Shown here piece by piece: positions 1-11,829 of a DNA stretch of 11,829 nucleotides. Every line of letters starts with the position of its first letter. Within the stretch, counting starts at the first letter, position 1. The position numbers and the translations under genes were made by a program. The DNA is from Candidatus Eiseniibacteriota bacterium (GTDB lineage Bacteria; Eisenbacteria; RBG-16-71-46; JABDJR01; JAWXBZ01): NCBI GenBank assembly GCA_034440375.1, contig JAWXBZ010000208.1, positions 1-11,829 of the forward strand, read 5' to 3'. The notes under the pieces are model-generated. The model searched no databases. It saw nothing but the letters and a program-made list of their open reading frames with translations, and had not been told where the DNA came from.

Positions 1-98
1 GCGACTCAAAAAGAACGAAGAACTGCTTCGGTCTTTCATCCAGGGCACGCCTCTTTCTTTACGCCTGTTATGAGACATTAGTTATGCAGTAGTCAATA
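1..98 (+). mobile_element. Right end of probable IS630-family insertion sequence (transposase C-terminus, terminal region, TA target)
   Basis: Frame 2 from the window edge reads RLKKNEELLRSFIQGTPLSLRLL* (stop 71-73), resembling IS630 transposase C-termini. It is followed by ...TTATGCAGTAGTCAA-TA (TA at 97-98), exactly where the peptidase reading frame becomes plausible. IS630 elements insert at and duplicate TA. The left end is outside the window. Confidence 0.65.
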
Positions 99-1927
99 GT
101 CGGTAAGGCGTTTCCGAACTTTAACCCCGCGGACACGCTCGGCGTTGGCCACAACGGTCAAGTTGTGCGTCTCATGAATTTCGGTCTCGTCTACCGGTTA
201 CGGCTGCCTGCCTCAGGCGATCCTCAGGCCCTCGCGGACGCGCTCAAGCAATTTCCAGAGGTTGTCTATGCGCACCGCAACGGGTCGACGGAAGCATGCG
301 TGGTCGAGCCGAACGACCCACGATTCCAGAATGGCAATCAGTGGAGCCTGCGCAACTATGGTCAGAGCGGAGGCACACCCGGCGAAGACATCCAAGCCGG
401 CGATGCATGGACCAGAAGTACGGGCGCGTCTACGACAATTATCGGCGTCATCGACTACGGAGTCTCCAACACCCACGTTGACTTGTTCGGCAAGGTGACT
501 GGAGACATTGGGCTCACACGCCATCCGAGCCGAATCACGGAACACACGTCGCCGGCATTGCCGCCGCGCGCACAAACACGATGCCAGCGGAAGGCGTCGC
601 AGGTGTTGACTGGAATGCCCTCATCCACTCGCAGCGCATCGACGCGCCGGGAGACGATGCAACCATCGCCGCCATCCAGGATGCTGTCACAGCAGGATCG
701 GACATTCTGAACAACAGCTGGCATATGACCGACAGCGGTGGGGACGCTCGATATTCTGACTCTGTGCGTGCGGCATTCATGAATGCCTACAAGTTGAACC
801 GCGTGGCATGTGTCGCGATGGGCAATGAGGAGGATACGGACCCGGGGGTCACCCAGTATCCGGCTGGATTCGGCCAGGGAATCATCGCGGTGGGCTCCAC
901 GGATCGAAGGGGCGCGATTGCATTCTCTTCAAGTACTGGCCCTCACATCGATGTGGCGGCGCCCGGAGTTGGAATCTGGAGCACAATCCCATACGCAGCC
1001 GGTTCTCCGCCTGCCTACGGGTCTAACAGCGGTACGTCAATGGCGACGCCGCACGTGGCCGGACTTGCCGGCCTACTCCTCGCTCGAAACCCTGCGCTAT
1101 ACAACGACGACATTGAGCAGCTGATTCGACTTTCTGCCACGGACAAGGGAGCCCCTGGATTCGACAACACTTTCGGTATGGGTCGCATTGATGCATACAA
1201 AGCCCTACTCTTCCTCGAGGCGCCCTACGCCCTCCTTCAAGAGGCCGCAACTGGTGGAACCATTCATTCCTCCACGTCCTCGTACTACACCCAGGGCTTT
1301 CTTGCCGGGGCCGGACCAACGGACGGAACATACCTTGCCAAGCGCCACGAAGTTCGCAAAGCCGTGACTTTCTCTAGTGCCTACGCCGAAGTGCCAGAGG
1401 TTTGGGGGCGGGGTGTCGATACTCGAGGGTATTCGACCGACAACCCGAATTGGGGAATGGGATGGTGCGAGCCGGTTCCAGGCACGATTACAGCGTCTGG
1501 GTGCACATTACGGACGTACATCTATGAAGTGAGAAACATCAACGGCACGCCGCTCGGGTGGTATCCGACGACTGCAGGTAATACGGCTTTTGCATGGACC
1601 TCGCTCGGCAGAACCGCGATTTCCCAAGTCGGGAATACACCCGATCCTGTCACGGCGATGTCGGTCCACCCTCACGTTAATCCGGTCACCGGCCCCTGCG
1701 TGTTCAAGGTCAGCATCCCCAGCTCGACAGTCGGCAGCCTCGAAGTGTTCGACGTCCAAGGCCGACGAGTGCGCACTATCAAAAGTGGAGCCTTCGAGGC
1801 GCTCGAACAGGAAATCAGCTGGGATGGACGGAGCCAAGCTGGCACGTTGGTACCACCGGGAACCTATCTATACCGGCTCCGCACCGGCTTAGGCGAGACC
1901 TCCGGTAAGCTCACGGTTGCACGGTAA
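99..1927 (+). pseudogene. S8 (subtilisin-like) serine peptidase with C-terminal FlgD-Ig/T9SS-like domain; 5' interrupted and frameshifted near 510-535
   Basis: The catalytic triad is split over two frames: IGVIDYG (Asp 453-455, frame 3), then HGTHVAG (His 536-538) and GTSMATPHVAG (Ser 1037-1039) in frame 2. Oxyanion motif AMGN is present. The propeptide-like frame 3 is open back to a TAG at 90-92, with no signal peptide. The C-terminus has VFDVQGRRVRT..WDGR..GTYLYRL. Confidence 0.9.
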
Positions 1928-1933
1928 GTCCGC

Positions 1934-2956
1934 ATGCTCCCGCTTCTCGCTCATTCCAGGAGGTTTAGAACAGGCTGCAGGCCACTTGTACCCCTGACGC
2001 GCCAACGATGCTGTGCGGTGGTGCTGGCAGCTCTCATGAGTGTTGTCGGATGTACCGACGATGATGGGAACATGGTCAAGCCACCGACAACAGTCTTTGC
2101 CCCGCATCACGAGGCGCCGGCATGGTCCACCCTGAATCAACTCGCCTACACGGATAATGGTTTTACGTGCGTAGGTGATGACGGGTCGGCGCTTGCTGAT
2201 CCCGACCTAGCCGGGCTATGGGTTTTGGATTTCCCCTCCGGGCAATCCCGCCGCATCCTTCCCTACGGTTTCGATGCGGACTGGACCCAAGACGGAATGC
2301 GGATTGCTTTCGTGCACAATGCTCACATTTACGTTGTCGAGCGAGATGGAACAAACCTTCGCCAACTGACTGACGAGGGTGAGAATGGTTGGCCTCGATG
2401 GGATCCACAAGGCCAGCGGATCTGTTACACCTCAAGCGTGGATGATGCAAACGGAGCACAGCTCGTGTGGGTTATGAACGCCGACGGCTCTGGGATGACC
2501 GACATTAGCAGGCACGGCGTCGGCGAGTGGTTGTATCCAGATTGGTCACCGGACGGCCTTCGGATCATTCACACGCGCTTCGTACCAGGACTTCAGTATT
2601 CAGAACTCTTTACCATGACAGCGTCGGGCGAAGACGCACGGAGGTTAACGACCAATAGTCGAGAGGAGCGCTGGCCGCAGTATTCCCCCGGTGGACTCCT
2701 CGTCGCCTTCAGCGCCAGATCGGAGTCGGGAGGCGGGGTCCAAGTGTGGACGATGAATGCTGATGGCACCGGCGTGGACCAGTTGACTCAGCGAGGCGGA
2801 ATCAACCCAACCTGGTCCCCGGACGGAAGTGAAGTCGCTTACGTTGCCGGCATGTCCGCGACGAACATGGCTTCCGACGGGGTGATATGGACGATAAACG
2901 TGACTACCGGTCTGGAACGACAATTAACGGTCAAGTGGCCGGAGGCATGCCCGTAA
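1934..2956 (+). CDS. TolB-like PD40 beta-propeller protein, probable lipoprotein
   Basis: Repeated PxWSPDG-type motifs (PAWS, WTQDG, PRWDPQG, PDWSPDG, PQYSPGG, PTWSPDG) and MNADG(S/T)G..QLT motifs. Hydrophobic stretch plus lipobox-like VVGC (Cys40). Starts 6 nt after the peptidase stop; the exact start codon is uncertain. Confidence 0.85.
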   Translation: MLPLLAHSRRFRTGCRPLVPLTRQRCCAVVLAALMSVVGCTDDDGNMVKPPTTVFAPHHEAPAWSTLNQLAYTDNGFTCVGDDGSALADPDLAGLWVLDFPSGQSRRILPYGFDADWTQDGMRIAFVHNAHIYVVERDGTNLRQLTDEGENGWPRWDPQGQRICYTSSVDDANGAQLVWVMNADGSGMTDISRHGVGEWLYPDWSPDGLRIIHTRFVPGLQYSELFTMTASGEDARRLTTNSREERWPQYSPGGLLVAFSARSESGGGVQVWTMNADGTGVDQLTQRGGINPTWSPDGSEVAYVAGMSATNMASDGVIWTINVTTGLERQLTVKWPEACP

Positions 2957-3025
2957 TCGCATGAGATGCCGTAATGATGCGATTCAGAATTGTGCCAGAG
3001 ATTCACCCCTAGCTCCCACGAGTTT

Positions 3026-3106
3026 CCAACCGTGACCCAACTGTGACCAATCTCCAGCCAAGACCACCCAACCAAGCCCAACGACCGCGCCTGCAACCTA
3101 TTGATT
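3026..3106. promoter_or_regulatory. Integrase arm-like region with IHF consensus site
   Basis: GTGACC pair at 3032 and 3043. CCAA recurs at 3026, 3037, 3047, 3058, 3068 and 3078 (10-11 bp period). CAACCTATTGATT (3094-3106) exactly matches the IHF consensus YAANNNNTTGATW. Confidence 0.55.
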
Positions 3107-3189
3107 TTCCTTGCTCAGATTGGCCTGCGGGGGCTGGATTCTCACCTTGGACGACCCTCATGACCCAAAAGTCGCGGCCACAGTTGAGT

Positions 3190-3208
3190 CGTCTCCAAAA
3201 CGTCTCCA
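3190..3208. repeat. Direct repeat CGTCTCCA x2 (arm-type-like pair)
   Basis: CGTCTCCA at 3190 and 3201, 11-bp spacing. Confidence 0.5.
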
Positions 3209-3367
3209 TAGCTCGGGTCGATTCGCGGGAATCGAGCGGACTGCCGGGGACACAGCAGTACTGACCCATCTCGTGTGACTAGCGATGTTACATCGGAAGT
3301 CGTGCGCCATCACCAAGATACGAGGATAGGTGCTGCCCGGGTTCGAATCCTTGGGCATAGCCCGTGA

Positions 3368-3675
3368 GTGCCGACAACTGTGCCGAGCTCGCCCCGCTAA
3401 TTCATTCCTCGTGCTTCAGTCCAGTTCAGGCTGCTTCAGCTTGTGCCACAAGCCAAACTGGCCGTAATTACGTTTCCTGCAAAAATCTATGACTGTAAAC
3501 GCCGCTGACCACACGACCTAGCTCGAGAGTCGGCTAAGTCTTGAATTCTCGTTCTTGTCGGTCTTGAAAACCGGCGTGGTGAAAGCCACCGTGAGTTCGA
3601 ATCTCACTCCCTCCGCCAGGTTACAGCGTTTTCAGTTTTCGAGAATCCGGGGTGTGCCGCCTACTGTGCCGAGCT
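3368..3675 (+). repeat. 22-bp direct repeats (paired GTGCCG arm-type sites) flanking tRNA fragment 1
   Basis: GTGCCGACAACTGTGCCGAGCT (3368-3389) vs GTGCCGCCTACTGTGCCGAGCT (3654-3675), 20/22 identical. Each contains GTGCCG twice, 12 bp apart. Confidence 0.75.
3558..3618 (+). tRNA. tRNA-Ser(TGA) 3' fragment 1 (att site, not a full gene)
   Basis: Anticodon arm TCGGT-CTTGAAA-ACCGG, long variable arm GTGGT-GAAA-GCCAC, T arm GTGAG-TTCGAAT-CTCAC, then TCCCTCC-G-CCA. No 5' acceptor strand (GGAGGGA) or D arm upstream. Confidence 0.92.
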
Positions 3676-3977
3676 GGTGACGGGATTCGGTGATGCCGGC
3701 GGTGTGGCCGTTGGTGGGAATGGTCCAACCCGCACGGAGCCGACAGGTCGCCGGCGCCTCCCGTGGGCACAGTTTCTTCGCCGCGTCGTCGGGTCTAGCA
3801 CTGGGATGCGCAGTGCCCGATGAGGATTCCACTACGAGCACCAGGCAAGATCACGCGAGGTAACACGTCAGCACGGCCTGAATGCGCGCGAAGGCGACGC
3901 GCACGCGGTCAACTCGAACCCGCGAGCGTCGCTGCAGGCCGTCACCTCGTCGTGCCCGCCCGCTGGTACCCCCCCGA

Positions 3978-6650
3978 TCACTTCTTCAACGTAGCGGGCC
4001 AGTTCTGCACGAGAGTGATGGGCTCCACGCCGCGAGTCTCGATCGCGCGGTTCACGAGGAAGCGCTCCCCGTCGGCCGAAACATCCCAGGCCTGAAGATT
4101 CTGCACACGGGCCCGCGGATCGAAGAGCGGATTCGGGGTCCCCGCCTGGAACATGGGCTCGAGGCGGATGTCCACAGCCACGAGCTTGCGGTCGGCACCC
4201 TGGTAGATGATCTCCCTCCCGCCGCGCGTCCACGCCGGTCGCGAGCCACCGTCGGTGGAGATCTGCCACTTGCCTCCATCGTCGAGGAGCGACTGGACAT
4301 AGATTTCGTCCCGCCCGGACTCGTTGGACGTGTACGCGAGCCAGCGGCCATCGGGTGAGGGAACGGGATGGGTCTCGTTGAAGGGCGTCGACATGAAGAC
4401 CGAGGCCTGCCCGGTCTGCAGATCGAGCCGCAGGATGTCCGAACCCATCTTGGGCGGAAAGGTCACGACCCAGGCCGTCGCTCCGTCGGGCGAGACGGTC
4501 CAGAGGTAGTCCGGATTGGGGCTCCCGTAAACTGGTTCGTCCTTCCCGGTTCCCGAGCTCGACTTGGAATAGACGTCGCTCTTCCCCGCGCGAGAGGACG
4601 AGAAGTAGATCTTCCGGTCGTCGGGCGACCAGAAGGGGGCCCAGTCGCTCTCGGGATCGAAGGTGAGGCGAGTGGAGGTTCCCCGTGCCACGTCCAACAC
4701 CCAAATGTCGCCCTTCGTGGTGCCCGGGTCGGCGATCGCCGCAACCACGCGCGACTCGTCGCGTGAAAACCTCGGCGCCCGATAATCCGCGACGGTCTTG
4801 CTGGCGAGCCCCACGTCCCTTCCGGAACGGTCGATCAGGACGAGTTGGGCCGGCTCGGTGGCGCTGCCGACCTCGAAGGCGAGAAGTCCGTTCCGGGAAA
4901 TGCTGAAGTCCGCCTCAAATCGGGCGCTCCGCTTGACGTTCTCCGCAACCGGCAGAGCCTCCCCGGACAGGCCCTGCGTGCGCGGATCGAACTTCTGCGC
5001 GACCAGCGTTCCGGCTCGCACGAAAAGCAGGTACCCCGTCGCCGGTGAGTACCGCGCCTGCCCGTTCGTGGCGACCACCAGCTTCTTCTGCTTCGAGCCG
5101 AGTTCGCCCGCGAAGACCGCGAAACCCTGGTCGGTCCCCGGGGTCTCGGCAGCGGACTCGACCAGGAACAGGTAGTGCTTCCCGTCGGGCAGGAACTCAG
5201 CATAGCGATGCGAGACCTCGCTGCGAGAGGAATCCAGCGCGGTCTCTGCGACCGGTGTGCCTCCCGTCACCGGCACGCGGTGGAGGGGCATTCCCGTGCC
5301 TGGAGTGAAGAGAATCGTCCCGCCGCTCCCCCACGCGGCTCCGCGCCCGTCGGCCGCGTCGCAGATCGCCTGCGGCGGTCCGCCCGCCGCGTCGATCCTC
5401 CTGAGCTTGCCCAAGGAGAAGAACGCCACTTGGCGGCTGTCGGGTGACCAAACGGGGTGCGTGGCCCGTTCGGTGCCCGGCATCAGCTGCGCGGAGCCGG
5501 TGGAAAACGTCCTGATCCAGAGTGCGGACTTGCCGTCCTGCCCGACTGCGACGAACGCGAGGCGCTGACCGTCTGGCGCCAGCACGGCTGCGCCGAGGCC
5601 GCTATCGAAGCGCAGGTCCTTCGGAGGAAGGACGGACGAATTGATGGCCGGCATCGGCTCGTGCCGCAGCGTCGCGAACGCGAGCGTCATGATCACGGCC
5701 GCCGCCGCCGTGGCGGCGTTCAGCGCCCACGCGGTGCGCAGGCGGAAGCGCCGCCGTGCCGCCAGCGGGGCCGCCTCGCCGGCGCGCGAACCAGCCTCGG
5801 AAATCCAGCGCAGCTGGTTCCCGATGTCGGCTGCGCTCTGCCAGCGGTCATCCGGTTCCTTCTCGAGACAGCGGCGTACCACGTGCTCGAGCGCGGGGGG
5901 CGTGAGCGGTATCAGTTCGCCCATCGGGCGCGGCGTTCCCGACACGATTGCCGCGATCAGCGAGGTCCGCGTGGCCCCTTCGAACGCCCGCTTTCCCGTC
6001 GTCATCTCGTAGAGCAGCGCCCCGAAGGCGAAGATGTCCGTGCGCGCGTCGACTTCGATTCCCTCGAGCTGCTCGGGGGCCATGTACTGGAAGGTCCCGA
6101 GGATCGTCCCTTCCTGGGTCAGTGGCGCCGCCTGCGTCGCCATGGCTGTCAACCCATGCACCGGCGACGCCTCGGGACCGGATCGGGCGAGGCCGAAGTC
6201 CAGGAGCTTGGCCCCCGCCTTGGTGATCATCACGTTGCCGGGCTTGAGGTCCCGGTGGACGATCCCCTGCCGGTGTGCGCGGCCCAGCGCGTCGGCGATC
6301 TGCGCGCCGTAGCGAAGCACCTGCTCCAGCGGAAGCGGACCCTTCTGGAGCCGCTCGGCCAGCGTCTCTCCCTCGATCAGCTCCATCACGAGGAAGTGCG
6401 TGCCGTCCTCGCGGCCGACGTCGAAGAGGGTGCAGATGTTCGGGTGGTTCAGGGAGGAGACGGTCCGCGCCTCACGCTCGAAGCGGGCGCGCAGCTCCTC
6501 GTTGGCGGCAAAGCCGGGCGGGAGTATCTTGATCGCCACGTCGCGCCCGAGTCGCGTGTCGCGCGACCGATAGACTTCCCCCATGCCGCCGGCGCCGAGC
6601 GGGGCGACGATCTCGTAGGGGCCAAGGCGGGTGCCGGGAGTGAGTGGCAT
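3978..6650 (-). CDS. Hanks-type Ser/Thr protein kinase with a hydrophobic segment and C-terminal PD40/TolB-like beta-propellers
   Basis: Kinase motifs LGAGGMGEVY, VAIK, HRDLKPGN, DFGLA and YMAPE. An Ala-rich hydrophobic segment is followed by multiple WSPD/SPDG repeats. 890 aa, intact. Confidence 0.95.
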   Translation of the reverse strand: MPLTPGTRLGPYEIVAPLGAGGMGEVYRSRDTRLGRDVAIKILPPGFAANEELRARFEREARTVSSLNHPNICTLFDVGREDGTHFLVMELIEGETLAERLQKGPLPLEQVLRYGAQIADALGRAHRQGIVHRDLKPGNVMITKAGAKLLDFGLARSGPEASPVHGLTAMATQAAPLTQEGTILGTFQYMAPEQLEGIEVDARTDIFAFGALLYEMTTGKRAFEGATRTSLIAAIVSGTPRPMGELIPLTPPALEHVVRRCLEKEPDDRWQSAADIGNQLRWISEAGSRAGEAAPLAARRRFRLRTAWALNAATAAAAVIMTLAFATLRHEPMPAINSSVLPPKDLRFDSGLGAAVLAPDGQRLAFVAVGQDGKSALWIRTFSTGSAQLMPGTERATHPVWSPDSRQVAFFSLGKLRRIDAAGGPPQAICDAADGRGAAWGSGGTILFTPGTGMPLHRVPVTGGTPVAETALDSSRSEVSHRYAEFLPDGKHYLFLVESAAETPGTDQGFAVFAGELGSKQKKLVVATNGQARYSPATGYLLFVRAGTLVAQKFDPRTQGLSGEALPVAENVKRSARFEADFSISRNGLLAFEVGSATEPAQLVLIDRSGRDVGLASKTVADYRAPRFSRDESRVVAAIADPGTTKGDIWVLDVARGTSTRLTFDPESDWAPFWSPDDRKIYFSSSRAGKSDVYSKSSSGTGKDEPVYGSPNPDYLWTVSPDGATAWVVTFPPKMGSDILRLDLQTGQASVFMSTPFNETHPVPSPDGRWLAYTSNESGRDEIYVQSLLDDGGKWQISTDGGSRPAWTRGGREIIYQGADRKLVAVDIRLEPMFQAGTPNPLFDPRARVQNLQAWDVSADGERFLVNRAIETRGVEPITLVQNWPATLKK

Positions 6651-6686
6651 CCGGGGAACCTACACCAGCTGTGCCTCACGCGTCAG
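6651..6686 (-). promoter_or_regulatory. Candidate sigma70 promoter giving a leaderless kinase mRNA
   Basis: Minus strand reads CTGACG-N18-TAGGTT-CCCCGG-ATG: a TAnnnT hexamer 6 nt before the ATG, with no convincing Shine-Dalgarno. Confidence 0.4.
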
Positions 6687-6823
6687 GCCTGCTGTCACCG
6701 ATCCCGTTGGTCGCCGATTGGTCGCATGTTCAAAGTCCACTCCTGCCCGTGCCTGGTCCCCTTCATAACCACAAGACGAAGTCCCGCCTGTGTGGCTGTC
6801 CACAAGCGGGGCATTGAGTGACA

Positions 6824-6946
6824 CTTCAGCAGCAGGCGCCGGAAAAGCTCTTCCACGACCTGCGGCGTCAACTGTGGTAAATCCCTAAACGCGCCGTTCG
6901 GCGTCATGACTTCGTTGGTCACCAGGGCGTGTCAATGCGGATGCCG
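6824..6946 (-). pseudogene. Relic of IS91-family (HUH/Y2 rolling-circle) transposase
   Basis: Minus frame reads RHPH*HALVTNEVMTPNGAFRDLPQLTPQVVEELFRRLLLK. This matches the IS91-family HPHxHxxVT-G motif and the following segment, with a TGA (6932-6934) at the U position of HUH. Confidence 0.75.
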
Positions 6947-7099
6947 GGTGGCGCAAGATCCGAACGTCTGGATCGAGATCACCTCCCCGGCAGGGCGCGT
7001 TCATGCGGAAGCCGGCCGCCCATGTCCTGCACACGAGGTCGTAGTCTGATACAACGATTTGGCTCGACAGCACTCAAGTGACAGGTATTCGTCCCGGCG

Positions 7100-7158
7100 G
7101 GTCTTGAAAACCGGCGAGCTGAAAGGCTCCGTGAGTTCGAATCTCACCCACTCCGCCA
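7100..7158 (+). tRNA. tRNA-Ser(TGA) 3' fragment 2 (att site)
   Basis: GGT-CTTGAAA-ACCGG, variable arm GAGCT-GAAA-GGCTC, identical T arm, then CCACTCC-G-CCA. The 5' half is absent. Confidence 0.92.
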
Positions 7159-7427
7159 GGTTGCCGGGATTGGTCTATTCCGAAGTGGCAAGGATAAGCA
7201 GACCTGTCTTGCCGACCCGAAGCTGGAGAGCCTTGCGGAACGCTAACCGGCTGGCCGCCGCTCTTTCCGTGCCGCCCCTACCATTCGCGCGGGGACGAAT
7301 CGGCATGAATCCCTTCCCCCCACCCGCGCATCTCATGGCTCCAGCGTGCGACGGGTAAGCCGCAGCCATAGCAACTCTTGTACACCGCCCGAGACCAAAT
7401 CCGTTTCATCAACCTAAGGAGCTCCTC

Positions 7428-7628
7428 ATGTCAAATGAACAGCAGACCTGGCCCGACCTTGCCATTGGCCTCTATGACCGGCTGACCGGCCGCGGTGCCG
7501 AAATCACTTATGAAGCCGTGGACCTCAGCGTTGCCGTGCCGAGCCGCGTGGGCGACACGACGAATCAGACACGGTGGGTGGTCAATGGCACGGTGAAGAT
7601 CCGCGCGAAAGATACCGTCTCCAAGTGA
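7428..7628 (+). CDS. Small hypothetical protein (TWPDLAIGLYDRLTGRGAEITYE motif)
   Basis: Strong RBS AAGGAG at 7416-7421. 66 aa with protein-like composition. The stop overlaps the next start (GTGA). Confidence 0.85.
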   Translation: MSNEQQTWPDLAIGLYDRLTGRGAEITYEAVDLSVAVPSRVGDTTNQTRWVVNGTVKIRAKDTVSK

Positions 7629-8020
7629 CGTTGGCAGCAGGCGGCGCGATAGCGACCACGGGAAGTGTGGAAGAGGGCGGTGCAGGGGCCCGACGTCATT
7701 TGGACGTTCTCGCGGCGGTTCACATCGAGACCCCGGCCGGGCTCATCGAGCTTTCCGGCCGGGGTTCTTCGCTTGTGATCGATCTGCAAAAACCCTCTAC
7801 CCTTCGCGAACTGTGGCGGCCGGTGTGGGCGGCACGCCACTTGATCCCGCGTTTGGCCCATCTCCTCGAATTCGCCGGGCTGGAAGTGGAACTGCGCGTG
7901 GGAAGTCGGCGCATCGCGTCGATCGGCGGGGGACAGCCGATTTCCATGCCGGCGCGGCTCCTCGGGCTGCACGGATGTATCATTTATCCGCGTGCGTTAC
8001 TCCGCTCCCTCGTCGCCTGA
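7625..8020 (+). CDS. Hypothetical protein
   Basis: In-frame GTG at 7625 overlaps the upstream TGA (translational coupling). It ends 15 nt before the next ATG. The start is uncertain. Confidence 0.65.
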   Translation: MTLAAGGAIATTGSVEEGGAGARRHLDVLAAVHIETPAGLIELSGRGSSLVIDLQKPSTLRELWRPVWAARHLIPRLAHLLEFAGLEVELRVGSRRIASIGGGQPISMPARLLGLHGCIIYPRALLRSLVA

Positions 8021-8035
8021 AGCGCTGCCAGTGAC

Positions 8036-9085
8036 ATGAGCTACGCGCGTGCCCGGCTCTGGCTGGGAATAGCAACCGTCGGCACGCTCACCCTGGCCGC
8101 CTCCCTGGCCCTGGTATCTGGACTCCCCGGGCGTCTCCTCGATCACCAGGGCTTTTTATACGACCTGCGCGGACTCGCATTCGTCCTGCTGGGTTACGTG
8201 GCCATCAGCGCGCCCTTCGACTGGATTGGTGGCTTCATCCTGCCCCGTCGCCATGGCCGATCCCACGCGACGGAGGGACGATTCGGCGCGCCGGGCGGGA
8301 TTTTCGGATTTACGGCGCTTTCCATCGGTCTCCTCGCATTTCAGTTTCCCCTGGCCAGGATCGTAGGCGGATTCGGATATCAACGCGGTGGCAAGGACCT
8401 TCCCGGAGCCTCGGTCAATCGCGCGCACGGGCGGGACATTTTGATGGCCGACGCCAGGGATGAAGGCTTCGTCGGCGGCCTGATCGGACTGCCCGGACTT
8501 GAGAGGCTGGTGCTGCCCAAGGCCTGGCTACATGAACTCAAGTCCGATGAATTGGCGATCCAGCTGGCACGGCGCGAGGCGGCACTGGCCACGGGGTCGC
8601 GGCTGCGCGGCGTGATCCTCGCGCTGGCCTGGAACGTGGCCGGCTTCATCCTCTCCGCGCGCCTGACGGGCTCTGATACGGGGACGCTCTCCGGGCTCGT
8701 GACCACGGCGATCGGCTTCACGCTCTGGTCGTTCATCGGGCTGCTCCTGTTGCCCACGCCAAGCCGGGCCGGAGTGTTCGAGGTCGACCATGCCATCGGG
8801 GCGAAGGGCTTCTCTCCCTTTGCTGTGGAACGCCTGCTGCGCATCCTCGACGCCCGGCAGGATGGCGAACCTGATCGACCGGCCGGTGTTGAGATGATCT
8901 TCCATCCCGTGCCCGCCTTGGGCAGCCGCCTCGCGTCGATGCGCCGAGCCAAGGCTGGAAACGGTTGCTGGCACGCGGCGCGAATGGTACTGCCGCTCTC
9001 CTGGGCCGGTCTCGGGTTCCTGTCCCGCGCGGTGCACTGCAATTGTGGCCGCCCGGAACTCTGGGTCCTGCTGCCGGGGGACTGA
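8036..9085 (+). CDS. Multi-pass membrane protein, M48/Ste24-like layout but lacking HEXXH
   Basis: Several hydrophobic segments. RLVLP..LKSDELAIQLARREA sits where M48 has LxxxELxAVxAHE, and IFHPVPALGSRL resembles the M48 HP motif. The C-terminus has SRAVHCNCGRPELW. Confidence 0.8.
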   Translation: MSYARARLWLGIATVGTLTLAASLALVSGLPGRLLDHQGFLYDLRGLAFVLLGYVAISAPFDWIGGFILPRRHGRSHATEGRFGAPGGIFGFTALSIGLLAFQFPLARIVGGFGYQRGGKDLPGASVNRAHGRDILMADARDEGFVGGLIGLPGLERLVLPKAWLHELKSDELAIQLARREAALATGSRLRGVILALAWNVAGFILSARLTGSDTGTLSGLVTTAIGFTLWSFIGLLLLPTPSRAGVFEVDHAIGAKGFSPFAVERLLRILDARQDGEPDRPAGVEMIFHPVPALGSRLASMRRAKAGNGCWHAARMVLPLSWAGLGFLSRAVHCNCGRPELWVLLPGD

Positions 9086-9147
9086 ACGGCCCAACCGGGG
9101 CCATGGATGCCGAAATCCGCTGCGAGGCGTCATTCGCCATTCCCCGC

Positions 9148-10656
9148 TCACAGCTTCTTCAGAAAGGCCGCTGCCTGCCGTTGGACGGTTTGCCGCTCCG
9201 CCTCGTTCAAATGCTTCAGGCCGAGCACGTTCGGCCCCATGCGCGGGTTGGCTCGCAACTGGCGTTCGAACCGCAGCAGGAAATTCCAGTAGAGAAAATT
9301 GAACGGACAGGCGTCATCGCCCGTGCGCGCTTTCGGATCAAAGCGGCAGCCTTTGCAATAGTCGCTCATCCTGTTGATGTAGGCCGCAGAGGCGATGTAA
9401 GGCTTCGTTCCCACCACGCCGCCGTCCGCGCACAGGCCCAGGCCGATGACGTTTGGCGTGACGACCCAATCGTAGGCATCCACGTAGCCATCCAGAAACC
9501 AGTCGTTGACATCCTTCGGCTTGATTCCGGCGATCAGCGCGAAATTGCACAGCACCATCAGCCGTTCGATGTGGTGGCTGTAGCCCGTCTCCAACACGCG
9601 TCCGATTACCTGATGCAGGCAGTTCATCTCCGTTTGTGCCGACCAGAAGAAGTCGGGCAGGGGCTGCTCGGCTTGCCAGTGGTTGCGTTCGTGAAAGCCC
9701 GGCATCATCCGGTGATACCGCCAGTAGACATATTCGCGCCAGCCGATGATCTGCCGGATGAACCCTTCGACCGAATTGATCGGCGCTGCGCCGGCGTGAT
9801 AGGCCGCCTCGGCGCGCCGCACCACCTCCAGCGGTCCAAGCAGCCCGATGTTCATCAGAGGCGAGAGCACGGAGTGAAAAAGGATCGGCTCGCGCGCAGC
9901 CATCGCATCTTCAAACGCGCCGAATTGCGGCAGCCGGTGGACGATGAAATCGTCGAGCGTTTGCAGCGCCTGCTCGCGCGTCACGGCCATCGCAAAGCCG
10001 CGGGTTGAACCCATGCTGCTCTTCGCCTCTCGCTCGACTTTGGCCATCACCTCTGCCGTGATCGCGTCCGGCGCGAATTGGATCGGCGGCATCGGGCGGA
10101 TCTTGCTGTCATAAGGCTTTCGGTTTTCGCGATCAAAGTTCCACTCACCACCGATGGGGTCTCCCGTCGCGTCGAGCAATACGCCGAAATGCCTACGCAT
10201 CGCCCGGTAGAAAAATTCGAGCACTAATTTCCTGCCCGACTTTTCTTCCGGCGCAAACCGCTCACAGAGAAAGTGACCATTGGGAATGATCTCGATCTCC
10301 GCGTCAAGATCGTCTTTAAGTTGATGCTGCCGCTGTCGCGCCTGCCATTCGGCGGCTTCCATCATGTACAATTTCCGGCTTCCCGTTTCGCGCAGGTGCG
10401 CCCGCAATTCGGCGCCGAAAGACGCTCCCTCCCGATAGTCCACGCGCCAGCCCGCACGGCGCAGCGCGTCAGCGTAATGACGCATCGCCGAAAGCATGAG
10501 CGTGGCTTTCTGTTTGTGAGGGGGCCGCTCGTCAAGCTGGTCGGGCGAGTCGATCATCACGACAACCCGCCGCGATTGGTGCGCGGAATCGAGCAGCGGA
10601 TGATCGGGCATCAACTGGTCACCTGGAATCCAGGCTGATTCGAGGGCGTCTTTCAT
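9148..10656 (-). CDS. Cryptochrome/photolyase family protein, FeS-BCP (PhrB/CryB-like bacterial (6-4) photolyase) type
   Basis: Motifs GDQL, HKQK..SAMRHYA, EFFYRAMR, GGEWNFDRENR, FGAFEDAM, LFHSVLSPLMNIGLL, EGFIRQIIGWREY, HHIERLM and KPYIASAAYINRMSDY. Four Fe-S cysteines (MNC, YCKGC, ACPF). ATG at 10656 is preferred over GTG at 10680. Confidence 0.93.
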   Translation of the reverse strand: MKDALESAWIPGDQLMPDHPLLDSAHQSRRVVVMIDSPDQLDERPPHKQKATLMLSAMRHYADALRRAGWRVDYREGASFGAELRAHLRETGSRKLYMMEAAEWQARQRQHQLKDDLDAEIEIIPNGHFLCERFAPEEKSGRKLVLEFFYRAMRRHFGVLLDATGDPIGGEWNFDRENRKPYDSKIRPMPPIQFAPDAITAEVMAKVEREAKSSMGSTRGFAMAVTREQALQTLDDFIVHRLPQFGAFEDAMAAREPILFHSVLSPLMNIGLLGPLEVVRRAEAAYHAGAAPINSVEGFIRQIIGWREYVYWRYHRMMPGFHERNHWQAEQPLPDFFWSAQTEMNCLHQVIGRVLETGYSHHIERLMVLCNFALIAGIKPKDVNDWFLDGYVDAYDWVVTPNVIGLGLCADGGVVGTKPYIASAAYINRMSDYCKGCRFDPKARTGDDACPFNFLYWNFLLRFERQLRANPRMGPNVLGLKHLNEAERQTVQRQAAAFLKKL

Positions 10657-10894
10657 CTGGCCGGGATCGCGGAAGCCCACTCGTCCAGGGGCGCGGCATC
10701 GGGATTTCTAAACCAGGGCTTGGGGCTGTAACTTTCCGGGTTCTTAACCGCCCGGCGCAGGTCCCGGGCGGAACCGCGTACTTTGTCCTGGGGCATGGCG
10801 GTGACCTCTTGGGTGGACGATGCGGCAAGCGCGCGGCGGCCGCTGGACGACCCTGATCTTACGCCCATTGCCCGGTACTCGGCCTGCCGCCCGG

Positions 10895-10955
10895 CCGGTC
10901 TTAAAAACCGGCGAGCCGAGAGGCTCCGTGAGTTCGAATCTCACTCCCTCCGCCA
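10895..10955 (+). tRNA. tRNA-Ser-derived 3' fragment 3 with TAA anticodon variant (att site)
   Basis: CCGGT-CTTAAAA-ACCGG, variable arm GAGCC-GAGA-GGCTC, identical T arm, then TCCCTCC-G-CCA. The 5' half is absent. Confidence 0.9.
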
Positions 10956-11117
10956 AGTTGCAAGACTTCCTGGGATTGACAAGGTCCGGTGCCAAGCTTA
11001 GGGAGGCCGGGAGTACCAAATCGAACTGTCTGCAGGACGGGGAGCTTACGAGACAACGATCCTCACGGCTCGCTAACTACTTGTCCGAATCCGCGCTAAT
11101 GTCTTTGTTGGGGCTCC

Positions 11118-11147
11118 TTGACAGAATGACCCACCAAGCTTTAGTCT
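11118..11147 (+). promoter_or_regulatory. Sigma70-type promoter of TA operon
   Basis: TTGACA (11118-11123), N18, TAGTCT (11142-11147), upstream of the antitoxin. Confidence 0.6.
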
Positions 11148-11187
11148 AACAGTACGACTTTCTAACTCTAGCTCTTTGCTCCCAACT

Positions 11188-11499
11188 ATGAGTGCCGAAA
11201 TGGCCACCAAAGCCCGCATTCGCCGGAAATTTCAGGTCACGATCCCCCAGGAGGTGCGGGAAGCCTACCCTTTGGAAGAGGGTCAGTATGTAAACGTCGA
11301 AGCCACGCCTCGCGGCATCCTCATAACTCAGACTCGAGAAGTGGACGCTGCTCAGACTTGGTTTTGGAGCCCACGCTGGGCTGACATGGAGCGCTCTGCT
11401 GATGAGGACTTCCGTGCCGGCCGGATAACCGAGACGCCATCGGCTGAAGCCGCAATTGCCGCCCTCAAAAGGAAACCAGGCAGTCCGAAGCGGAAATGA
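11188..11499 (+). CDS. AbrB/MazE/SpoVT-family antitoxin
   Basis: KFQVTIPQEVREAYPLEEGQYV..GILI swapped-hairpin motif and C-terminal QTWFWSPRW..ERSADED..GR. The start is ATG 11188 or 11200. Confidence 0.88.
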   Translation: MSAEMATKARIRRKFQVTIPQEVREAYPLEEGQYVNVEATPRGILITQTREVDAAQTWFWSPRWADMERSADEDFRAGRITETPSAEAAIAALKRKPGSPKRK

Positions 11500-11768
11500 A
11501 GGTTGCCTTTTCGCGGACCTTTCACGAGAACTACCAAGTTCTCCCTTCCAGCATCCAGAAACGCGTTGACAAGACCATCCGGTTCTTGGCCTCGAAGCAG
11601 GTGAACAAACCGTTTCACCCCAGTCTACGCGCCAAGCGCATCAAGGGCACAGCGGACATCTGGGAGGCGAGTGTGACCATGAAGTACCGCCTCACGTTTC
11701 AGATTCACGAAGACACCTTATACCTGCGCGTTGTCGGAGATCATGATCCAACACTCAAGAACCCATAA
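11496..11768 (+). CDS. RelE/ParE-superfamily toxin (probable mRNA interferase)
   Basis: ATGA overlap with the antitoxin. 90 aa basic protein with FSRTF..Y..L, HPSLRAKRIKG..IWEASV..YRLTF and VGDHD. Confidence 0.85.
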   Translation: MKVAFSRTFHENYQVLPSSIQKRVDKTIRFLASKQVNKPFHPSLRAKRIKGTADIWEASVTMKYRLTFQIHEDTLYLRVVGDHDPTLKNP

Positions 11769-11829
11769 CTAAGGGAATTCCGCATCTGGACACCAATCCA
11801 TGCAATCCTGGAATCGACTAAAAGATTCA

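Follow-up and report, generated by a model that had tools for sequence, protein, structure and literature searches.

How does a single tRNA gene come to be accompanied by a row of its own 3′ halves, each slightly different from the next and each still able to pair its variable and T stems? The question is raised by contig JAWXBZ010000208.1 of a Candidatus Eiseniibacteriota bacterium (C208 here), which was analysed whole as the window (11,829 bp) and belongs to a 264-contig metagenome-assembled genome (MAG) of 3.96 Mb and 63.8% GC. Three repeats in this window are 3′ halves of a tRNA-Ser(UGA) gene whose intact form lies on another contig of the MAG. The reading favoured here, at a probability of roughly 0.75, is that the locus is an array, now in decay, of tyrosine-integrase islands that entered tRNA-Ser(UGA) in tandem at its anticodon loop, each insertion having given the gene a new tail.

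Four other contigs of the same MAG were used: C136 (3150 bp), C249, C13 and C244. They were compared with the metagenome stretch L054, with L055 and L056 and with the genomes of relatives, among them G001 (same family), G003 and G014. Phylum searches covered 205 other genomes, and the species-genome scan covered one genome each for 185,579 species. The tRNA-Ser(UGA) genes of 30 relatives were compared, 3′ fragments were surveyed in 40 relatives, and Logan contigs of four runs, including X14 (soil), X10 and X11, were aligned to the window, some parts of which had no cover in these three runs. Protein families were scanned with Pfam, NCBIfam and PHROGs in the window, C136, the region downstream of the intact gene on C249, and L055/L056.

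Four tRNA-Ser(UGA) fragments and one intact gene

A repeat search of the window returned one family of three direct copies (3549-3631, 7089-7171 and 10886-10968), the second matching the first at 82% and the third at 76% over 83 nucleotides (nt). Each copy contains 61 nt that make up the 3′ half of a tRNA-Ser(UGA): the anticodon loop and both of its stem strands; the variable and T arms; and the 3′ acceptor strand with discriminator G and CCA. ARAGORN found no intact tRNA in the window, and therefore all three copies are fragments. Rfam returned only sub-threshold matches for them, to tRNA-Sec (tRNA clan) and to a plastid 3′ untranslated region. The fragments and the features at the intact gene are as follows.

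3558-3618, + strand: fragment 1; variable arm GTGGT-GAAA-GCCAC, T stem GTGAG/CTCAC, acceptor TCCCTCC-G-CCA
7098-7158, + strand: fragment 2; variable arm GAGCT-GAAA-GGCTC, acceptor CCACTCC, one anticodon-stem pair broken
10895-10955, + strand: fragment 3; variable arm GAGCC-GAGA-GGCTC, acceptor TCCCTCC, anticodon mutated from TGA to TAA
C136 2105-2165, outside the window: fragment 4, found by BLAST against the genome, 3924 bp beyond fragment 3
C249 3018-3105, - strand: intact tRNA-Ser(UGA), sole copy, 88 nt (ARAGORN)
C249 2648-2925, + strand: C-terminal remnant of a tyrosine integrase, frameshifted (tblastn), with the HxxR and GH...Y motifs still readable

The variable arms and acceptor strands of the three fragments in the window are exactly as the initial annotation had given them. 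All four fragments share one register, beginning at the 5′ strand of the anticodon stem and running to CCA, which is one of the canonical crossover sublocations. They bound three cargo units, A, B and C, and any two of them differ at 3 to 8 positions (87-95% identity). Fragment 1 differs from the tail of the host gene at four positions and from fragment 4 at five; fragment 3 differs from fragment 4 at three. A 23-nt block at 3559-3581 is identical in the intact gene and fragment 1, and the crossover would lie within it.

The array is not an assembly artefact, because three other metagenome assemblies carry it at 99.95-100% identity. One metagenome contig of 88,663 bp (Ga0163152_10000300) bears the four fragments at spacings of 3540, 3797 and 3924 bp, the first two as in the window. 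On it C136 comes after C208 across an 885-bp gap, so the two are contiguous. Altogether 12 metagenome stretches matched the fragment pattern, 11 of them being this locus in four other contigs and the twelfth an intact gene, L054, which is described below. The DNA of the window also recurs in microbial-mat runs.

The host genome holds four tRNA-Ser genes (GCT, CGA, GGA and TGA). Only the TGA gene resembles the fragments (95%, 85% and 94% over 60, 59 and 31 nt), with no identity complete, so the variants are not copies of host paralogues, an alternative that the initial annotation had itself raised. The acceptor stem of the intact gene, GGAGGGA/TCCCTCC, is fully paired, and the target gene is thus complete. 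The genes upstream of it, a glyoxalase and a 936-amino-acid propeller protein, are syntenic with G001 at 61-65% identity, and this is therefore the native 5′ flank. The 3 kb downstream have no match in G001 and no family matches.

It is on this downstream side that the integrase remnant lies, 90-370 bp behind the tRNA 3′ end, on the opposite strand and pointing towards the tRNA. The remnant matches the genome's own non-Xer integrase on C13 (tblastn E 8e-13) and, at 50-59% identity over 56 amino acids (tblastn E 6e-10), a G014 integrase located next to a fragment of tRNA-Ser(CGA). Pfam PF00589 on the remnant alone is weak (E 0.08 and 0.17, collinear). The remnant apart, the intact gene has no integrase in the 6.6 kb upstream of it or in the 3 kb downstream.

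The stems of the fragments retain pairing through changes on both sides. In an alignment of six sequences (the tail of the intact host gene, fragments 1-4 and the tail of the intact gene in L054), pairing is kept in 89 of 90 stem cells, and of the 15 pairs three have changed on both sides; the covariation score was reached by 0 of 500 shuffles. Within the variable and T stems of the four fragments, pairing is complete (40 of 40 cells). Two variable-stem pairs, 20-31 (A-U/U-A) and 22-29 (C-G/G-C), divide the host tail and fragment 1 from fragments 2, 3, 4 and L054; the T-stem pair 37-47 (A-U/G-C) divides the host tail from all the other five sequences. All five changes between fragment 1 and fragment 4 fall in the variable stem, where four make up two compensated pairs and the fifth leaves a G.U pair. 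When five substitutions were placed at random, 134 of 2,000,000 sets gave two doubly changed pairs with the variable and T stems all still paired.

At least three tails have been functional: that of the present gene, that of fragment 1 and that of the fragment-4 type. This follows from the two compensated variable-stem pairs that set fragment 1 apart and the one T-stem pair that sets the host tail apart, and on both counts the initial claim that these tails are not the decay of one duplicated sequence is borne out. Fragments 2, 3 and 4 are one allele with single-sided or unpaired changes, which neutral decay explains as well as separate origin. Relative to fragment 4, fragment 2 has a C-to-U change in a C-G pair (giving U.G), two acceptor changes, one change that breaks the anticodon stem, and a U/C difference in the first column, on the element-arm side. 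Fragment 3 has one loop change (A to G), the anticodon change (G to A) and the same first-column difference. The proposal that the three fragments come from three different tRNA-Ser genes is thus half right for the window, whose fragments represent two alleles, and holds in spirit for the locus as a whole, which has three or more.

Probable successive insertion and the source of the tails

If small islands were inserted in succession by site-specific recombination of the tyrosine-integrase type, at the anticodon-loop sublocation, the process would involve: an element attachment site (attP) that reproduces the tRNA from its anticodon stem through CCA and adds tens of bases of flank; a crossover in the anticodon stem-loop, by which the gene takes the element's tail; and the pushing of the old tail downstream, where it forms the junction with the older island. 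The three repeats and the fourth beyond the window would then be displaced 3′ halves of a single tRNA-Ser(UGA) gene, each marking an island junction. The integrase genes would have been lost since, the newest island alone retaining the frameshifted C-terminal remnant beside the intact gene, and 3.5-3.9-kb cargo units between attP-like junctions would be what is left. Compensatory differences between the tails would arise because each tail once had to work in a tRNA. Serial insertion with re-tailing, as the initial annotation had proposed, fits the native 5′ flank, the integrase remnant, the variable-arm distribution and a joint found in a relative.

This joint occurs in run X14. Two contigs there read the 5′ half of the C249 tRNA directly before position 3559, with 30 of 30 nt identical, including the two bases that precede the gene. 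In this genome C249 carries the intact gene, and C208 and C136 carry the fragments; the relative's contig joins the 5′ half to fragment 1 in the same orientation. One X14 contig (1017 nt) runs over 3559-3766, skips 202 bp and resumes over 3969-4183. The joint is a good lead to the state before the newest insertion, in which a relative would hold an intact gene where fragment 1 lies here, followed by unit A. Everything to the left of fragment 1 would then be an insertion relative to the X14 state. In a second X14 contig, a tRNA fragment stands between about 6780-6837 and 9140-9476; the junction there has the DPRP gene of unit B as its neighbour, without the three open reading frames (ORFs) that accompany it in the window. 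Content beside the junction therefore differs between relatives.

Comparable junctions are found elsewhere in the group. Among the relatives surveyed, at least G003 and G014 have tRNA-Ser genes accompanied by 3′ fragments with this starting point in the stem.

G003 (L060) 8442-9463, - strand: intact tRNA-Ser(UGA) and, 0.9 kb later, a fragment starting in the anticodon loop
G014 L057 5695-5754 and L058 8583-8643: 3′ fragments of tRNA-Ser(CGA), 4.8 and 65 kb behind the gene, bounding units of 4.8 kb and 60 kb

The G003 unit has at least 40 nt of downstream flank duplicated and holds only small ORFs without a family. In G014, the inner unit contains DUF3800, DUF5131 and a truncated integrase before the fragment, and the outer unit contains an intact integrase of 339 amino acids that ends 20 nt before its fragment. 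The truncated integrase of G014 and the frameshifted remnant on C249 together document integrase decay in such arrays.

The initial annotation had further supposed that each tail records a previous host. No donor was identified: a scan of the species genomes for an exact donor tail, with a degenerate pattern of all fragment variants, returned seven stretches, none of them equal to any fragment, and the same pattern had 0 matches in viral contigs. Five of these belong to Patescibacteria, one to Geobacteraceae and one to Gammaproteobacteria; all are intact tRNA-Ser(UGA) genes with the acceptor strand CCCCTCC and other variable arms. One T arm is common to all four fragments, and the intact host gene is without it. 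Behind a UGA loop, this T arm was found in 0 of the 205 other phylum genomes; it was otherwise seen only in the metagenomic gene L054. That the fragments have one T arm in common speaks for a narrow range of related elements or hosts and against disparate taxa.

L054 1965-2052: intact tRNA-Ser(UGA) on a metagenome contig

The tail of L054 is that of fragment 4 but for one base, its D arm is that of the host, and the 90 nt downstream closely match the flank after fragment 1. Its acceptor stem (5′ GGATGGG versus 3′ CCCCTCC) contains a U4.C69 mismatch, exactly the kind that an element-swapped tail would leave. Upstream lies a lytic transglycosylase only 36% identical to its best match in the host genome (G000).

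The variable arms offer a second, smaller source of information on origin. That of fragment 4 is identical to the variable arm of three genomes of the same order (G002, G005 and G007); that of fragment 1 is one base off the arm of G028, from another family; and that of the present gene is found in 0 of the tRNA-Ser(UGA) genes of the 30 relatives. Arms of 14 nt are only suggestive, and what they suggest is that fragment 4 is near the native tail and that the present tail is imported.

The acceptor strands can be set against the 5′ strand of the host. GGAGGGA pairs perfectly with TCCCTCC, so the expected pairing holds for fragments 1, 3 and 4 and the present tail; it breaks down for fragment 2. 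No UGA-loop tRNA with a CCACTCC strand was found in the 205 other phylum genomes, and some tRNA-Ser(GCT) genes of the class carry GGAGTGG/CCACTCC. The fragment 2 acceptor may be a mutation that followed displacement.

Several observations weigh against this sequence of insertions. The CCACTCC strand of fragment 2 mismatches the host 5′ strand at pairs 5-68 and 7-66, so that this tail either never served here or mutated later. Fragment 4, the farthest from the gene, is the least decayed, and a simple age order predicts the opposite. No contig-end overlaps joining C208, C136 and C249 were found, so the link between C249 and the array, which the succession of insertions would require, is unseen in this genome. 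The X14 joints rest on one contig each, from a metagenome, at a minimum likeness of 88%. The C249 remnant points to the tRNA from downstream, the G014 integrase lies upstream of its fragment, and the two elements are therefore not built alike. Finally, units A, B and C are all without an integrase trace and are alike in size (3479, 3736 and 3864 bp), which is not the simplest outcome of random decay.

Cargo units and junction flanks

The window can be divided at the fragments into the end of the most recent insert, two complete units and the start of a third.

1-3557, + strand: probable right-hand part of the most recent insert, which would lie between the intact tRNA on C249 and fragment 1; GC 58%
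581-1927, + strand: subtilase with FlgD_ig tail (Pfam)
1934-2956, + strand: PD40 beta-propeller protein (Pfam)
3361-3389, + strand: type A flank in a decayed copy (blastn E 0.002; 83% over 29 nt in repeat family D2)
3619-7097, - strand: unit A, 3479 bp, GC 67%, with type A flank at 3619-3700
3978-6650, - strand: Ser/Thr kinase with PD40 repeats, 890 amino acids, sole gene of unit A (Pfam)
7159-10894, both strands: unit B, 3736 bp, GC 63%, starting with type B flank
7428-7628, 7574-8020 and 8036-9085, + strand: three ORFs of unit B, with no Pfam, NCBIfam or PHROGs family
9148-10680, - strand: photolyase/cryptochrome-related DPRP gene of unit B (family scans)
10956-11829, + strand: start of unit C, 3864 bp in total including the part on C136; GC 62%
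11176-11499, + strand: AbrB/MazE-type antitoxin of unit C (family scans)
11496-11768, + strand: RelE/ParE-type toxin of unit C (family scans)

Beyond the window, C136 holds two secreted FlgD_ig proteins that belong to unit C, then fragment 4, then an AbiEii-type gene. From left to right the GC content runs 58, 67, 63, 62 and 59%, compared with 63.8% for the genome. The contents of the units are unrelated to each other, and units A to C are not paralogous segments. The kinase of unit A has paralogues 40-45% identical elsewhere in the genome. Homologues of DPRP occur in 12 of the 205 other phylum genomes, at 46% identity at best, and none was found in the one genome of the same family. The spread of this island cargo is patchy, and DPRP is plausibly a light-related accessory gene in mats.

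Integrases are absent from the units, a point that the initial annotation did not consider. For PF00589, C208 and C136 gave no match up to E 10; four integrases used as tblastn queries returned nothing better there than E 0.28. Beside fragments 1-4, neither tblastn nor a reading of three minus-strand frames revealed an integrase remnant. The Pfam, NCBIfam and PHROGs scans found no relaxase and no phage-family protein in units A, B and C. Between the flank of fragment 1 and the kinase stop is a spacer, of which 202 bp (3767-3968) are missing from the X14 relative's contig; to judge from C249, an integrase gene would once have stood in this spacer.

The flanks of the junctions fall into two types. 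Type A is found after fragment 1, L054 and the relic at 3361-3389, and in part after the intact gene; type B, with TTCCGAAGTGG in it, is found after fragments 2 and 4. On the upstream side, all four fragments have an invariant short CTGA block about 55 nt ahead of the core, and in fragments 1 and 2 this block opens a longer one common to both. Partial flank conservation on both sides of the core would be expected for attP-like junctions between related tandem elements. The relic at 3361-3389 is preceded, at about 3340, by the T-loop-like GGTTCGAATCC, and is probably a fifth junction, badly eroded.

Some further observations concern single features. At about 895-925 on C244, a contig of 2.9 kb, lies an isolated T arm with part of an acceptor-like sequence; it is 21 nt long, matches the T arm region of the fragments at 95% and is possibly another tRNA scar. 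A kinase also lies beside tRNA-Ser(UGA) in G029 and G040, where it is upstream of the tRNA and divergent from it, which is a different arrangement. Inside the kinase gene of unit A, an Rfam match to an internal ribosome entry site was taken as chance. The long ORFs antisense to this gene (e.g. 5457-6821, + strand) were not counted as genes, such frames being expected by chance at 67-72% GC.

Other explanations and known systems

The absence of any integrase trace from all three units can also be read as their original condition. The units would then never have had an integrase and would be cargo mobilised in cis or in trans, carrying attP-like tRNA-tail sites, with an integrase of the family elsewhere capturing and releasing them at tRNA-Ser, much as with cis-mobilizable elements (CIMEs) or an integron. 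Similar unit sizes and a junction sequence conserved on both sides of the core accord with this, as do the non-Xer integrase on C13, related to the remnant at the tRNA, and the X14 relative, which keeps its fragment while the neighbouring content differs. Integrase-less units also stand at tRNA-Ser in G003 and G014. Loss by decay is documented, in that the newest element has an integrase remnant and one G014 unit a truncated integrase. The only integrase sequence within 6.6 kb upstream and 3 kb downstream of the intact gene is the remnant. Among the assembled contigs, neither a circular or excised form nor an empty inner-unit site was seen, and three values are too few for a test of size regularity or for such regularity to mean much. 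We regard an origin of the units without integrases as rather unlikely.

A related proposal concerns the present behaviour of the locus: that the junctions are complete attP-like sites, with upstream arm, anticodon stem-loop core and downstream arm, and that the 3.5-3.9-kb units are still exchanged by a trans-acting integrase of the family. This is doubtful. If it were true, tRNA-Ser(UGA) would be the anchor of an integron-like cassette array in a little-known phylum, and from the differing tRNA tails one could read off, as in a ledger, which tail each cassette had brought.

Local duplication would account for the array without any mobile element. Tail and flank would have been copied in place by slippage or unequal crossing-over and have drifted since, gene conversion from the intact gene having kept the likeness to tRNA. 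One T arm in all four fragments, not present in the intact gene, and flanks of only two types are what such copying might leave. Against it stand the two doubly compensated pairs that set fragment 1 apart and the fact that gene conversion cannot create a T arm or variable arm that the intact gene lacks. The unit contents are unrelated and differ in GC, and the X14 state is one of insertion, not of duplication. This origin is very improbable.

Selection for a present function, in which the fragments are kept as tRNA-like RNA or DNA structures serving the neighbouring genes (as processing sites, terminators or insulators), could explain intact variable and T stems throughout and the X14 fragment retained although both its flanks differ, and is as hard to credit, because mutations hit the fragment 3 anticodon and a fragment 2 stem pair, the 3 to 5 substitutions per fragment relative to fragment 4 are too few to show selection, and every fragment fits the register of an attachment-site scar.

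A decaying stack of islands at tRNA-Ser(UGA) has counterparts among known systems. Classes of sublocation for integration within tRNA genes were reportedly set out by Williams in 2002. The array resembles the tandem islands treated by Islander and TIGER: the island sequence regenerates an intact gene; displaced 3′ fragments form direct repeats at the island ends; the attachment site is anticodon-centred; and newer arrivals push older islands away from the gene. In the Islander paper (Hudson, Lau & Williams 2015; PMC4383910), the anticodon-centred attP class comprises 2083 of 3919 islands, arrays of three or more are rare (4 of 3919 candidates), and a tandem array is admitted only if every island has its own integrase. 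Unlike those arrays, this one has three inner units each without an integrase, and its intact gene is on another contig of the MAG.

CIMEs, as characterised in ICEberg 2.0 (PMC6323972), which cites Bellanger et al. 2011 and whose subject here includes site-specific accretion, have lost integration and transfer genes and kept the flanking att repeats. Units A, B and C are similar in that they have no integration or transfer genes, carry att repeats on both sides and form a tandem stack with a related element at one site. CIMEs were defined in Firmicutes beside integrative and conjugative elements and their mobilisation was reportedly shown experimentally, whereas here neither conjugation genes nor a helper nor mobility was observed.

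The account of the tycheposons of Prochlorococcus (Hackl et al., bioRxiv 10.1101/2020.12.28.424599) describes successive integrations that push older ones inward, and islands that hold degenerate remnants, fragmented integrases and extra partial tRNAs; a figure legend there uses tRNA-Ser(TGA) in its example of tRNA gene labels. Successive integrations, as read here, together with degenerate remnants, a fragmented integrase and partial tRNAs, are likewise features of the present locus. It differs from tycheposons in phylum and habitat and in that the family scans found no helicase, primase or intact recombinase in the window, C136, the C249 downstream region or L055/L056. An integron differs more plainly: save for the remnant, neither the array nor the intact tRNA has an integrase gene next to it, the junctions consist of tRNA halves in place of attC sites, and the units are 3.5-3.9 kb long with genes on both strands.

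Set beside these systems, the locus is a familiar genomic-island stack, here in an uncultured mat bacterium, and the known view of how islands form is unchanged. It is a record of an integration hot spot at work in a phylum known from metagenomes alone, with cargo (kinase, photolyase-related protein, toxin-antitoxin pairs) that suits a light-exposed microbial mat or a defence island. It also provides a clean worked example of mobile DNA re-tailing a single-copy tRNA gene repeatedly, with the old tails kept in order and readable as functional alleles.

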